The position numbers were made by a program, and so were the translations under genes. Positions 6,078 to 14,431 of a DNA stretch of 64,000 bases are shown here, piece after piece (the first letter of the stretch is position 1; every line of letters begins with the position of its first letter). The notes beneath the pieces were generated by a model. It worked only from the letters and a program-made list of their open reading frames with translations, had not been told where the DNA came from and did no database searches. This DNA is from a virus, in IMG/VR virus record IMGVR_UViG_3300009514_001427, one strand, 5' to 3'.

Positions 6078-7250
6078 ATGTCATGGTTGCAACGGATAGC
6101 TCAAAGGTACGAAGACACCAAATACTGGGGACGATCATTTCGTCAGCAGAATCCTGATTTTGCTGGTGGGTTTGAAGTTTACCAATCTCCTCATTTCCCG
6201 CACGTTTTCTTAGGTGGCGAGCAAGAGCTAGACGAAGCCGAAGAGAAGGCTGGTCAGCCTATGTGCAAAATCGTTGATTGTCGGGATTTGCCCGAAATTG
6301 ACGCAGAGAATCCTTCCTGGGATTACGGCTTCTACGCGACTGTTAAAGCCAAATTTGACAAAAAGGTCAAACAGCTCGCTGGGACCATTCAATCGGCAGA
6401 TTGCCCAATTTACGTCCATTGTGCTATGGGGGCGAATAGGAGCGTTTCTGTCCTGGCCGCAGCAATTTCCCTCTTGACAAATCAACCGATTGACACTATA
6501 CTGTCGGACATGAAACAGTCGAGGATGGTCGTCAATCCTCAAGATCCGTATTATCTCATGGCGTTGGAAGAGAGTCCTGCTGAATCTCCAGAGTTCAAAG
6601 AGCGTCGTTATTTGGAGTTAGATCAGGATTTTCCGTTGGTACAGCCTGGTTTGCCCGAAGAAGAATCGTTTCTTAATAGGGCTGAAACCCGTAATTGGTT
6701 GCAAAGAATGGCACAACAAAAAACGCTGATTGTTAGTCGCGGACCATCTGGCTCTGGAAAAAGTTCCATGAGTCGCAAATTGAGCGAACAGCTCAATGCT
6801 CCCGTATTCACAACTGACGATTTTTTCATGCAGAGTGGGTCTTACCAGTTTGATCCGAGTCAATTGGGTCAGGCTCACGAATGGAATCGTCAAAGAGTTG
6901 AGGAGAGTATGAGAGGTGAAACGCCTCTAATCATCGTAGATAATACCAATACGCAGTTTTGGGAAATGAAGCCATACGTTCAATTGGCTCAGCAATACGG
7001 GTATGCTGTTGATTTCAAGGAGCCCGAATGGCATTCCGACTTAAAAACTCCAGAGGGTGTCTGGAACGTAGACTTCCTGGAATCCATGCAAGATCAACCA
7101 GATCGAGAAAAGAGTCTGCCTCGACACATACTAGAACAGATGGTTAGCAGATACGAATACAACCCCTCAGTAGAAGCCGTTTTACAATCAGAGAGACCAG
7201 AGCGCCCTGCACGAAAACGAATAGACGATGAGCTGGAGGAGCGTGCTTGA
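6078..7250 (+). CDS. leader-tagged PTP/dual-specificity-type phosphatase fused to P-loop (AAA_33/PNK-like) kinase
   Basis: N-term MSWLQRIA; PTP signature VHCAMGANRS (C-x5-R-S); Walker A GPSGSGKS; IIVDNTN kinase motif. Confidence 0.65.
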   Translation: MSWLQRIAQRYEDTKYWGRSFRQQNPDFAGGFEVYQSPHFPHVFLGGEQELDEAEEKAGQPMCKIVDCRDLPEIDAENPSWDYGFYATVKAKFDKKVKQLAGTIQSADCPIYVHCAMGANRSVSVLAAAISLLTNQPIDTILSDMKQSRMVVNPQDPYYLMALEESPAESPEFKERRYLELDQDFPLVQPGLPEEESFLNRAETRNWLQRMAQQKTLIVSRGPSGSGKSSMSRKLSEQLNAPVFTTDDFFMQSGSYQFDPSQLGQAHEWNRQRVEESMRGETPLIIVDNTNTQFWEMKPYVQLAQQYGYAVDFKEPEWHSDLKTPEGVWNVDFLESMQDQPDREKSLPRHILEQMVSRYEYNPSVEAVLQSERPERPARKRIDDELEERA

Positions 7251-10200
7251 TGAATTGGTTTGAAAAAATTGCACAGCGCTTGACGAAGCTTGCTGTTGAC
7301 GAACAGCAAGCTTTGTCTGGTCCTCTGGTTGATTCCATTGTAGCCACTGTCTCTGACATGGTTGGTCGTGGAGCGCCCATTGAAAAGAATGATTATGGTT
7401 TCAATGGCACCGACTACATGGATGCCATGCAAGGCAACCTGAGTAAGTTGCTCACTTATGGACCGGGATCTGAAGTCCCCATTCCACTTTTGGTTCATGC
7501 TGTTCAAACTCTTTGGAAATACGACGCTACCCAATTGGGTGGACAAGTTAGACAATTGCGTGAACAGCTTCAAGCAGAGATGCAGGCTCTTCAGCCCGTC
7601 CAGCCCCAGCAACCTGAGCAACCTCAGCCGCAGCAGCCAGATCAACCACCTACGACCGAAAGGCGAGTACGGATACTCGGGTGGGGGTCTGGTTTTAATC
7701 GAGACATGGTTCGAATTCATATCCCCGATGCCGATAGCAGACTTTCGGCTCGTGCAGTTAACAAGATGATTCGTGACAATGCTCAGGCATTGGGATGGGA
7801 AGAGGAAGAGATGGATGTTACTCTTCCAAACGGATTCCGTTCTACCAAATGGGACTTCCCTCTCAACAAGCTCCGTCGCAAGGACAAGGAATCATTTGAT
7901 ACATGGATGCTTCACAAAGATTTCATTCCTGTTCTAGTCAATCATTTGACCGCGATGAATCAAAAAGAGGCGGAGAAAGCTCCCAGAGCGCGTCCTCCGC
8001 GTGAGCCCTTTCTTTGGGATCTTTCGGAGTTAGAAGCGTTCAATACTGGCGAAGGTGAGCATGTTGAGCAGCCTAAGCCACAGGTCCAGATTCGCGGACA
8101 GGAAAGCAACTACGGCAATGAATACTTCATCAAGTTTGATTTCACTACCCGCGAGTTTGTAAATCAATTCAAGAGCTTTGTCAAAGAGACTTTGGATTGG
8201 TGGTGGCCGAAATGGACGGGCAACGATACAAAAGAATGGCATTTACGTGGTACGAAGAATGAGAACTTTGATCAGTTAGTTGCTTTCTTCGTGGACAATG
8301 GTTTCGATGCTTCTGCTTTGGCTCACATTGCAGAGCAGTTGAGTCAGCAGACGGATGCAGAGCCAGACCAGCCTACTCAACAGGAGGAGAGTCTTACTCC
8401 GTTGTTGGTTCAGAATACTTCTGGACAAGGCAAATGGCATATGGGATTATCTATTCCGCGCATTTCTCCGAATATGCGTGAGAAGTATTATCAAGCCATC
8501 AAGCTGTCATTTCCTACTTGGAATGATCAGCGGTATTTGAATCGAGACAATTGGACGTACTTTGTCCGAGGCACGTACTCTGATTTTGCCGATTTTGGCA
8601 CGATTATGAAGAATTACGGATTTGACGTAACTCAGCTTCGAGCTGTTTTCGCAGAATTGATGCAAGCTGGTGTTCTTCAGCGTGAGCGCTTAAACGGGGA
8701 ACTTGACGGATTTGACAATTCTGACGAATTACGCACCGCAGCGGGTCAATTGCTTACACCAGGCTATGAATTGTATCCAGCTCAGGCAGATGGCGTAGAA
8801 TTCCTCTACGGACGCTCCTCAGCGTTTCTGGGCGACGAGACTGGAGCGGGCAAGACAATCCAGGCAATCGTTGCAGGGGACCTTAGAATGCGTCAGACGG
8901 GCGGCAGAGGCTGCGTCGTGACCCTTCATGCGACCAAACACCAGTGGATGCGGGAAATCAGGAAATTTACGGGTGATAATAGCATATCGGACGATCCTAC
9001 TGATGGGGCCAGATGGACGGTTTTGACATATCCTCAGTTTTCGGCTCCGAAGAATGGTCCGGTTCTAACGCAAAATGCGAAGCAACAGCAATATCAGGTG
9101 ATGATCCTGGATGAGGTTCAGAATACCAAGAACAAATCCAAGCGTACTGAGCGCATTCACGATCTTGGCGAGAAAATCCCATTCAAGTGGGGAGCCAGCG
9201 CGACGATCAGTGCCAATATGCCGATTGACGTATGGCGTCAGTTGAAATCGATTGGTCATCGATTGGGCGATTTGTCGGAGAGCGGATTCCGAACAGGCAT
9301 CTTAGGTCAGAAATTCAAGAGACATAAATATGGTGGTGACTGGGTTTATCCTGGCAACACTCCTGAAGAACAAGAAGAGAATGCTCTGAGGGCTGCTGCA
9401 TTCTTGAATGAGTGGCTGACAAAGCATGCGGGCATTTACATTCGTCGCACCAAGAAAGACATCAATCCGAACGTTTCCAATCACACGGTTTCGGAAGCTC
9501 CGGTCCAGCTTAAGCCTTCACAGATTAAGAGGTTCCACAAGGCTGTTGCTGAGCGTATGGCTCAATACGCTGATCCTGATCTTGCTATCTCTGAAATGAT
9601 TGCTCAGCGAGCGGAGATTGCTACAGCCAAGGTTCCGAATAGTCTTGAGCTAATCGAAAATGTTTTGGCGCAGGACAAGAAGGTCTTGGTCTTTACCTGT
9701 TTCCGTGAGACGGCTGCTCAGCTTCATGAGGGATCACAGAAGGCTGTGGCTCGATGGGGCGGAGGAGAAGTCCTTTCGGTTTTGGGTGGAGACAAGGATC
9801 GTGAAGCCAAGTTGGCTCAGTTTAAGGATGACCCCAATGCCAAGGTTCTGGTTTTGAGCATTTTGGCTGGCGGTACTGGTATTGACCTTCCCAACGTCGT
9901 TGACGATGTCATCATGAATGACTTCTCATGGACGCCGAAGGAAGCGGAGCAAGCTGAGGGTCGAGCGTATCGTGTTACGAGTGAGAACGACATCAATACG
10001 AAGTACGTTCTTGCGATGGATACGGTGGATGAATATTTCTACCAGACTGTCCAGATGAAGCGCCGACTGGCGAATGAAATTGACAAAGCTACCAATATGG
10101 AAGAGCGAATGGTTGCTCAACGCGCATTGGCTAGGGTGAATCGTCGCGTTGGTCAGCAGGTTGTCGAGCTAATCAAAGATCCTACTAAAGTTCAGGAATT

Positions 10201-13805: not shown

Positions 13806-14431
13806 ACTGGTTACAGAAGATAGCTCAGAAGCCGATGGCTTTGCCAAAAGTTCCTCCTACTTGGAGTAATTGGCAGGATGATACTTATGGTGGTGGGGCT
13901 ATGCGCATTGACGATGTCATGAGTCCACAGACAGCTGAGGAGCAGTTTGAGCCTGACATGCAATACGCTGGTCATGGATCGTTTGGAGTAGTTTATCGTA
14001 CGGGTCCTGGTGAAGTATCTAAGTTTTCCAAAGATCCTCGTGAAGCTGAGACAGCGCAGTTGGTGTTTGATCAGAAGTATGATTGGATAGTTCCTATGTT
14101 AGCTCCACCTGAGCAGGTGCAGTATGATCCACCAGTTTATCGATTGCGCATGAAGGAGATGAAGCCGCTCGAACAACATGAGACTATGCTTGTCAATTAT
14201 TTAGAGATGCATTATGAGAAAAAAGGCATCCCCAGTATTGAGTTTGTAATGGAGAATTTTGTTCCATATGTTGATGTAGACAAAGTTATGTACATCTATA
14301 AACGCATGAAGTACATTCTTGAGCAGAATGAAGCCACTCTTTGGCTTACAGATCTTCATGGAGGAAATTTCGGCTGGGATGGCAACGAACTAAAAGTCTG
14401 GGACATAGGTCCAGATACGTCAAAGCGATGA
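13802..14431 (+). CDS. leader-tagged hypothetical protein
   Basis: true start at MNWLQKIA (ATGA overlap with upstream gene); track ORF starts further upstream. Confidence 0.5.
   Translation: MNWLQKIAQKPMALPKVPPTWSNWQDDTYGGGAMRIDDVMSPQTAEEQFEPDMQYAGHGSFGVVYRTGPGEVSKFSKDPREAETAQLVFDQKYDWIVPMLAPPEQVQYDPPVYRLRMKEMKPLEQHETMLVNYLEMHYEKKGIPSIEFVMENFVPYVDVDKVMYIYKRMKYILEQNEATLWLTDLHGGNFGWDGNELKVWDIGPDTSKR

Follow-up and report, generated by a model that had tools for sequence, protein, structure and literature searches.

An eight-residue peptide shared by unrelated tandem genes of very large phage-like genomes is a candidate address tag

A common octapeptide on eight unrelated genes

A stretch of 64,000 nucleotides from the IMG/VR virus record IMGVR_UViG_3300009514_001427 (hereafter, the window) carries an array of eight overlapping plus-strand genes, at 6078-14431, whose products begin with nearly the same eight residues and are otherwise unrelated. 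This octapeptide, called leader or tag below, is under selection at the peptide level and portable, being present in at least 63 unrelated families; outgroup homologues lack it, and within a lineage it varies in concert. We infer from this a common partner, its capsid identity and the injection of the cargo, and hold these steps with unequal confidence. It seems probable to us (about 0.75) that a single partner common to the tagged proteins recognises the octapeptide, which would serve as a portable docking or address helix. The full packaging account, in which this partner takes part in head assembly and the cargo would be loaded into the capsid and injected, is drawn by analogy and is tentative, its chances falling somewhat short of even.

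The eight genes start at 6078, 7250, 10288, 10482, 11015, 11614, 12087 and 13802, and all begin with M-[N/S]-W-[L/F]-[Q/E]-[R/K/S]:

Tagged gene 1, 6078..7250, plus strand: 390 residues; leader MSWLQRIA (6078-6101); dual-specificity phosphatase followed by a P-loop kinase
Tagged gene 2, 7250..10291, plus strand: 1013 residues; leader MNWFEKIA; N-terminal half of no assigned family, SNF2 helicase at about residues 465-950
Tagged gene 3, 10288..10485, plus strand: 65 residues; partial leader MNWLQSEL; start overlaps the stop of the SNF2 gene (ATGA); no family match
Tagged gene 4, 10482..11015, plus strand: 177 residues, isoelectric point (pI) 4.3; leader MNWLQRII; no family match
Tagged gene 5, 11015..11617, plus strand: 200 residues, acidic; leader MNWLQRIA; no family match
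Tagged gene 6, 11614..12090, plus strand: 158 residues, GTG start; leader (M)NWLQKIS; no family match
Tagged gene 7, 12087..13805, plus strand: 572 residues; leader MSWLQKIA; module A, acidic linker, module B
Tagged gene 8, 13802..14431, plus strand: 209 residues; leader MNWLQKIAQKPMALP, MNWLQKIA; no Pfam match

An earlier, sequence-only reading of this DNA had proposed the eight starts with their shared octapeptide, and each was found where it had been placed. The consensus it gave, M-[N/S]-W-[L/F]-[Q/E]-[R/K/S]-I-[A/S/I], fits seven of the eight genes exactly and fails for gene 10288 (MNWLQSEL), which departs from it at positions 7-8. Translational coupling, also claimed, agrees with the junctions: all seven overlap, five by 4 nucleotides (xTGA) and two by a single one (TGATG at 7250, TAATG at 11015). 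The genes had been called unrelated downstream of the octapeptide, and the best pairwise BLASTP match between the leader-stripped proteins has indeed an E-value of 0.11, with none of the wider similarity expected of a recent duplication. Three further copies of the peptide, at nucleotides 6693, 13065 and 10268, had been overlooked.

The domain assignments mostly stood. The phosphatase/kinase fusion predicted for gene 6078 was recovered by Pfam as DSPc, with the signature HCxxGxxRS, followed by AAA_33, a polynucleotide-kinase-like family. One of the overlooked copies, RNWLQRMA (6693-6713), lies exactly at the boundary between the two, and the kinase half is a stand-alone tagged gene at loci L071 (MNWLERIAARRV) and L073 (MNWLQKISQQKLLVIARGPS). 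The SNF2 helicase of gene 7250 was confirmed by its SNF2 and Helicase_C domains. Modules resembling ADP-ribosyltransferases or Tpt1 had been proposed more broadly; it found weak support for one gene, 12087, whose module A has a predicted fold of this type. The AlphaFold2 model (from an alignment of 13 sequences, with a mean predicted local distance difference test score, pLDDT, of 68) gave weak, consistent top matches, all to ADP-ribosyltransferase folds: Tpt1/KptA, pertussis and cholera toxins, and DarT (Foldseek E about 0.01). In the same gene a second overlooked copy, SNWMQRIA (13065-13085), stands between the linker and module B.

Among the remaining genes, 10288 has an apparent homologue, judged by eye, on the opposite strand of L013 (start MNWLKTSG). 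Homologues of 10482 are present, leader included, in L090 and L148. Inspection by eye revealed a YHGS motif in 11614 and protein-kinase-like motifs (GHGSFGVVY, DLHGGN) in 13802. The latter belongs to one of the two most widespread cargo families at array loci (10 loci), and in L013 its module follows a PcfJ module in one fusion, which holds an internal copy of the tag (QSWLSRLAQKPMAIP).

Selection on the peptide

A six-frame search of the 64 kb with a regular expression of the motif gave 10 matches, all on the plus strand and all within 7.7 kb (6081-13805). Sequences simulated with a first-order Markov model contained 0.02 matches on average and at most one (200 runs), so a chance origin is rejected. 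The codons of the leader vary synonymously (TTG/CTA/TTA, CAA/CAG, CGG/AGA/AAA/AAG, ATA/ATT/ATC, GCT/GCA/GCC), which indicates that the motif is selected as a peptide. This variation, together with internal and C-terminal copies that have no ATG, rejects a repeat or regulatory element acting at the DNA level. A recent tandem duplication is rejected by the absence of similarity between the leader-stripped genes of the window and by the 63 unrelated groups in the metagenomes described below.

Codon usage in the leader is in line with that of the gene bodies, isoleucine excepted: ATA makes up 84% of the leader codons for this residue and 31% of those in the bodies of the same genes (leaders of the window and 125 leader open reading frames, ORFs, from L013-L133). 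The TTA codon of leucine is likewise enriched. We considered that ATA might provide a back-up TAG stop in the upstream frame, and rejected this because leaders that overlap the upstream gene and leaders that do not show the same bias. Recoding of TGA was also rejected, the long ORFs being intact in the standard code with all three stops in use. Scans for sigma-70 promoters and for terminators gave only background levels.

Spread and cargo in metagenomes

We ran a degenerate DNA pattern for MNWLQ[K/R]IA on metagenome contigs and found at least 120 loci. Among the matches listed, at least 32 loci have more than one tagged ORF, as many as ten of them lying within 7 kb; there are at least 125 unique tagged proteins, of 42-1013 residues, in at least 63 groups that share no BLAST-detectable similarity once the leader is removed; and ATGA overlaps account for 50 of the 96 junctions that have an ORF upstream. 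The leader of the 125 tagged proteins is composed of M (97%), N (88%, otherwise S), W (100%), L (90%), Q (84%), K (86%, otherwise R), I (77%) and A (72%), followed by Q in 37%. Beyond it there is no conservation, save for an enrichment in proline 7-9 residues past the tryptophan.

Pfam searches of 120 tagged proteins identified ParB_N and GNAT (five each), PcfJ (four), DSPc and ART-PolyVal/PARP (two each), as well as SNF2, AAA_33, DUF3990, a CCA-adding enzyme with an HD domain, and DUF4116 repeats. The family PF18760 was found in the homologues P0003 and P0008 and at locus L146. In Pfam and NCBIfam, no family occurs in more than 6 of the 120 proteins and none of those is a signal model; the possibility, raised earlier, of a known secretion or sorting signal found no matching family in either database.

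Elsewhere the motif was not seen in arrays. A pattern restricted to lysine gave seven single, chance-like matches and no arrays in 185,579 species-representative genomes; the number expected there by chance is about three, by our own estimate. The window has no DNA match among GenBank phages, no arrays were found in IMG/VR, and the literature searched contains neither the peptide strings nor, as far as we found, a prior description.

Relatives, lineage variants and internal copies

The homologues of gene 12087 are informative on how the tag and its cargo are associated. Nine of them (P0001-P0009) start with MNWLQK[I/T]A, MGINWLQKSA, MEWLRKLS, MSWFFKWA or MNWYKIA, and have copies at internal junctions that read SNWFVRIG, SNWLVRVS, SSNWLKKIA, SNWFTKVA, GNWYRVKI or GSWYKRAQ. 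In this set modules A and B are separate tagged genes or are fused with other partners, having recombined with phosphatase, NUDIX, ART-PolyVal/PARP or GNAT modules. All the closer metagenomic homologues carry the tag; the distant ones, in Vibrio schizoT4 phages and Salicola phage SCTP-2 (starts MEELQLV and MLINEII), do not. Since these outgroup homologues lack it, the tag is not part of the domain, and the comparison indicates that it is added when a module is recruited.

Two loci, L013 and L148, are syntenic with the window and have 12 tagged genes each, L013 with internal and C-terminal copies in addition; each locus holds 12-13 tagged modules. The same modules are seen both as separate tagged genes and fused, with a copy of the tag at the junction after an acidic linker. 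One tagged gene of L013 stands alone on the opposite strand. The locus L146 is divergent, and MNW[Y/F] opens every one of its seven array genes: the residue after the tryptophan is Y or F in 7/7 cases, as against 2/20 in the window and L013 taken together (Fisher's exact test, 4e-5). Such a concerted change across unrelated genes is expected if all of them fit one lineage-specific partner; gene conversion could have contributed.

We compared internal with N-terminal copies using a hand-curated list restricted to sequences found by homology, none by pattern. Identity to NWLQKIA averages 4.8 of 7 positions in N-terminal copies and 3.3 in internal ones (p = 0.007), and glutamine at the second position after the tryptophan is present in 17/27 and 2/13 copies, respectively; an unbiased extraction of junctions by homology gave too few cases for a comparison. 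Relaxed internal copies are to be expected where a polypeptide needs only a single terminal tag, and the better preservation of the N-terminal ones speaks against a protease site between modules.

The third overlooked copy is C-terminal. The SNF2 helicase ends in a leader-like tail, SSWLARVL* (10268-10291), which the leader of the next gene overlaps directly in another frame. The tail is kept in L148 (SSWLRRVL*, 4715-4738) and in L059 (SSSWLRKAIS*, at the end of an SNF2 gene of 1108 residues), so in three genomes that are 35-60% identical; the copies of the tail show synonymous differences and different serine codons. Hence, the peptide is not strictly an N-terminal signal. Some other genes also end in leader-like stubs. 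An intein containing a LAGLIDADG domain is present in the SNF2 helicase of L148 as well.

Plotted on a helical wheel, the residues W, L, I and A share a single face. In the AlphaFold2 model of gene 12087, residues 2-8 are predicted to be helical, with pLDDT below 50 and unpacked against the domain, and the internal copy lies within a predicted helix (residues 319-334) past the low-confidence acidic linker. The leader can be modelled as an amphipathic helix of two turns, capped by Asn or Ser, in which the invariant Trp joins L, I and A on the hydrophobic side, and which is often followed by a proline-rich linker.

Surroundings of the array

The other features of the window are as follows:

14538-14897, plus strand (10674-10895 in L148): small PspC-domain membrane protein, conserved directly downstream of the last tagged gene
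14894..16045, minus strand: S8 subtilase (Pfam 6.5e-59), convergent to the array
16458-16673, minus strand: ribosomal protein S21, a context gene kept beside arrays
16666-16899, minus strand: cold-shock protein, a context gene kept beside arrays
17301-18185, minus strand: ADP-ribosylglycohydrolase, a context gene kept beside arrays
18530-29956, minus strand: ORF of 3808 residues; Laminin_G_3 (concanavalin-like) is the sole domain match, and there is no PHROG match
32.5-36.2 kb, minus strand: glutamine synthetase, FolD and formyltransferase, upstream of the tRNA-bearing stretch on the same strand
38324-62781, minus strand: 16 tRNA genes (Thr x2, His, Ser x4, Arg x3, Gln, Ala, Pro x3, Glu), interspersed among genes
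48132-50759 and 51181-52404, minus strand: homologue of the major vault protein and classical AAA ATPase, with one small ORF between them

The subtilase has no recognisable signal peptide or propeptide. Its homologues adjoin arrays in L045, L037, L057 and L031 (five contigs with the window), and none was found near the arrays of L013 and L148. The genes for S21, the cold-shock protein and the ADP-ribosylglycohydrolase keep their order in L013 and L148. The last of these lies just past the array in L013, L148, L081 and L027 too; the array is rich in ADP-ribosyltransferases, and the enzyme may serve self-protection or reversal.

Just upstream of the array, two plus-strand ORFs (3696-4303 and 4706-6028) encode dockerin/EF-hand-like acidic repeats (D-x-D-x-D-x-D-[F/L]-x-D-F); the L013 homologue of the second, which has 440 residues, starts with a lipoprotein-like signal and is located within the array. 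The C-terminal part of the 3808-residue ORF is conserved in L013 and L081. Further away, two acidic paralogues of 533 and 538 residues (57166-58767 and 58774-60390, plus strand) have no family match, and their C-terminal 110 or so residues recur near arrays in L020, L028, L037, L057 and L127, including in a polysaccharide deacetylase.

The vault-like protein (MVP_shoulder at 1.7e-23, and Vault repeats) is about 40% identical to proteins of the huge phage genomes LR756500/1/3, of 462 kb and 735 kb, in which a homologue of the AAA ATPase is also near the vault gene. These two are the only genes in common, and LR756500 has no leader array in the 150 kb around its vault-protein gene. To our knowledge, the only earlier report of vault proteins in viruses is a 2023 preprint on gut phages.

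An identical copy of the product of gene 13802 is present on a 153-kb Joint Genome Institute (JGI) contig, and syntenic relatives are found on contigs of 257 kb (Ga0452210_000013) and 557 kb. Searches with PHROGs, Pfam and PDB sequences found no capsid, portal, terminase, scaffold or prohead protease in the 64-kb window, which is smaller than the genome. The label of huge phage, and with it the viral nature of the element, is drawn from gene content, because no capsid, portal or terminase gene was recognised. Two relatives, P0004 and P0016, were deposited in GenBank as contigs, one of 557 kb, of metagenome-assembled genomes of the Asgard group/Promethearchaeota. The bacterial-type genes (S21 in the window, sigma-70 and RF-1 on related contigs) point to a bacterial host and to a probable mis-binning of these contigs. 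The acidic pI of the tagged proteins says nothing on packaging because the whole proteome is acidic.

Two other tandem arrangements were observed. In an unrelated viral contig, L011 (3696-5874 of IMG/VR UViG_3300014839_000005), six tandem small genes follow an ORF of 749 residues and have a different common N-terminal motif, approximately [L/M]QKIAExAF[I/V/D][D/N]E[L/M]xKI[A/S]. One of them starts with MNWLQKIAE, and several have Gly-rich hydrophobic C-terminal segments. Tandem genes sharing an N-terminal peptide may have a second example here. In L144 (2797-4068, minus strand), three tandem paralogues that start with MK[K/T]R[Q/N]GFVSNSSS lie beside a radical SAM enzyme, and the contig also carries a homologue of gene 12087 with a degenerate leader.

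Comparison with known systems

The sequence-only reading likened the leader to the sequence by which T4 internal proteins IPI-III are targeted to the capsid, and this parallel is sound: these are diverse defence proteins that share only a sequence of about ten residues at the N-terminus, MKTYQEFIAE (PMC3012670, PMC8442874). In both cases a short, portable N-terminal peptide precedes unrelated, rapidly changing anti-host proteins. When compared by eye with MNWLQKIAQ, the T4 sequence has a similar length, position and loose aromatic-x3-I-A pattern, which is an analogy and not a sequence homology. The T4 sequence ends in a site for the prohead protease ([L/I]-x-E) and is cleaved off on maturation, whereas the octapeptide has no conserved Glu after I-A. 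The T4 cargo consists of small basic proteins; the tagged cargo consists of large enzymes with a domain set of the polyvalent type. Also unlike T4, arrays hold 8-13 translationally coupled genes, and there are internal and C-terminal copies. In phage P1, the first 30 residues of DarB, a polyvalent helicase-methylase, suffice for capsid targeting (PMC9024508).

Polyvalent proteins are multidomain effectors with two to fifteen effector domains per polypeptide; they are predicted to be packaged and injected by phages, and to be moved with DNA by conjugative elements (PMC5512222). The arrays resemble them in their domains (ART-PolyVal, SNF2, ParB-like, kinases/phosphatases, acetyltransferases) and in the extensive shuffling of modules, and include fusions of two to four modules in the polyvalent style (gene 6078, gene 12087, P0003, and P0002 with four modules). 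They differ in that the arsenal is mostly made of separate coupled genes, each with its own short tag, and in that neither an embedded metallopeptidase nor an anchoring domain (MuF, portal-associated or type IV secretion) was found in the window and the array loci. Nor was a portal/terminase packaging module or a type IV secretion system seen to be linked to them, and the only peptidase noted was the S8 subtilase beside some arrays. Because most modules are separate genes, the array is better termed a split version of a polyvalent protein.

Two other classes of sorting signals can be compared. The peptides that load encapsulins and bacterial microcompartments are short, terminal amphipathic helices that a flexible linker connects with diverse enzymes; they are found at either terminus and have one receptor in the shell or scaffold. 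In contrast to them, the tag is far more strictly conserved, its cargo is host-directed and no shell gene is linked to the arrays. MIX, FIX, RIX and MuF toxins combine a conserved N-terminal marker with highly variable effector domains. Their markers are whole domains of at least 100 residues tied to a secretion apparatus, whereas the tag has eight residues and occurs in a phage-like genome in which no such apparatus was detected.

A short tag on diverse phage effectors is therefore already known from T4 and P1, as is the cargo set from polyvalent proteins. What is new is this strictly conserved eight-residue tag, found on at least 120 contigs and in dozens of unrelated families with lineage-specific variants, and its presumed role in holding together what would be a split polyvalent arsenal in giant uncultivated genomes overlooked by standard viral catalogues.

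Address tag and rival explanations

We propose that M-[N/S]-W-L-Q-[K/R]-I-A acts at the protein level as a portable address tag, which a clade of very large uncultivated phage-like genomes would prefix to each module of a split polyvalent arsenal (ADP-ribosyltransferases, SNF2 helicase, phosphatase/kinase, acetyltransferases, ParB-like nucleases, PcfJ and tRNA-repair enzymes). Tight translational coupling would hold the modules in fixed proportions. All these unrelated enzymes would be recognised through the tag by one lineage-specific partner, most likely a part of the head-assembly core, and would be packed into the capsid and reach the next cell together with the DNA. The step to packaging is suggested by the cargo set, because it is that of polyvalent proteins, which are predicted to be packaged and injected (PMC5512222).

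Several points weigh against parts of this proposal. There is no conserved Glu or obvious maturation site after I-A, where the next residue is Gln (37%), Ser, Thr, Gly or others. The arrays sit among auxiliary genes with no morphogenesis genes nearby, and no gene for a capsid, portal, terminase, scaffold or prohead protease was found beside any array. In T4, enzymes of the CCA-adding and polynucleotide-kinase-like classes are made after infection and are not packaged. The SNF2 tail suggests that the peptide is functional, or at least retained, off the N-terminus, unlike the T4 sequence. Finally, the strong ATA bias may point to a further constraint that acts on RNA or translation.

The tag could instead dock the enzymes on a common partner outside the virion: a scaffold for a non-covalent polyvalent complex, a compartment or unfoldase of the phage, or a hub of the host. 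All the evidence for a common partner applies equally here. The location of the arrays away from morphogenesis genes and the tolerance of a C-terminal position fit this view, and encapsulation peptides of bacterial compartments likewise tolerate the C-terminus. The candidates are the vault-like shell and the AAA+ ATPase at 48-52 kb, adjacent in the window and paired also in LR756500, as well as the ribosome, RNA polymerase and the nucleoid. Yet no partner was identified among them, and we regard this alternative as unlikely. In its narrower form, where the leader is the cargo-loading peptide of a non-capsid structure such as the vault-like shell with its AAA+ ATPase, or of another compartment or unfoldase, we think it very unlikely. 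If this form were true, a huge phage would sort its host-modifying arsenal into a non-capsid organelle by an eight-residue tag. The absence of an array around the vault gene of LR756500 shows that this gene does not require the tag system.

A terminal degron or processing signal, giving potentially toxic takeover enzymes a common, timed fate through recognition of the ClpXP type by the host or through the adjacent subtilase, has a small chance of being correct. The tag is mostly N-terminal, one copy per chain is apparently enough, and its pattern (polar-hydrophobic-hydrophobic-x-basic-hydrophobic) is one that we take to resemble the N-terminal recognition motifs of ClpX. The cargo includes ADP-ribosyltransferases, kinases and nucleases next to a conserved ADP-ribosylglycohydrolase, and the subtilase adjoining arrays in five contigs lacks a recognisable propeptide. 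However, this subtilase does not accompany every array, and the near-invariant Trp and Asn, with the set-wide switch from L to Y/F, fit a phage-encoded, co-evolving partner better than a host protease.

Slender, too, are the chances of an expression or recombination cassette, in which the leader, as a standard start region, would allow horizontally acquired modules to be expressed, through the nascent peptide, its early codons or reinitiation at ATGA, or would act as a microhomology linker for shuffling. The loci of T-even internal proteins are hyperplastic and have been proposed to shuffle like leader cassettes. The frequent ATGA overlaps, the enrichment in ATA and TTA, the shuffling of modules as units of leader plus domain, and the leader-like stubs at the ends of some genes speak for this reading. 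But most codon positions are free, the internal and C-terminal copies keep the peptide with different Ser codons and no start codon, the leader is restricted to array genes among the dozens in the window, and a tagged gene also stands alone on the opposite strand in L013.

It is most improbable that the motif marks the protease cleavage junctions of an ancestral polyprotein, with the N-terminal copies as residual half-sites. Copies do lie exactly at module junctions after acidic linkers, often as [A/S]-S-N-W, and processing by embedded peptidases has been proposed for polyvalent proteins (PMC5512222), but conservation is lowest in the internal copies, where cleavage would take place, and highest in the N-terminal ones, for which no cleavage would be needed, and most modules are separate genes. 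Equally implausible is a membrane-targeting amphipathic helix placing the enzymes at the membrane or entry site: a two-turn, Trp-bearing amphipathic helix is predicted from the sequence and the model, but a length of eight residues, four of them hydrophobic, is short for a helix that binds membranes, and such helices are normally degenerate, whereas the leader is nearly invariant within a lineage.

Implications

If the octapeptide is an address label, the simple rule of M-N-W-hydrophobic at the start of genes in arrays lists the delivered or co-localised effectors of this clade, most of which belong to families of unknown function. The lineage variants (L-Q-K-I-A versus Y/F-K) provide a natural covariation test for the receptor. 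A tag of eight residues able to carry proteins from 65 up to more than 1000 residues long would be of practical use in loading them into phage particles. Polyvalent proteins would then have a split equivalent in which a peptide tag replaces the covalent chain, and such a tag-linked arsenal would explain how modules are swapped one at a time.

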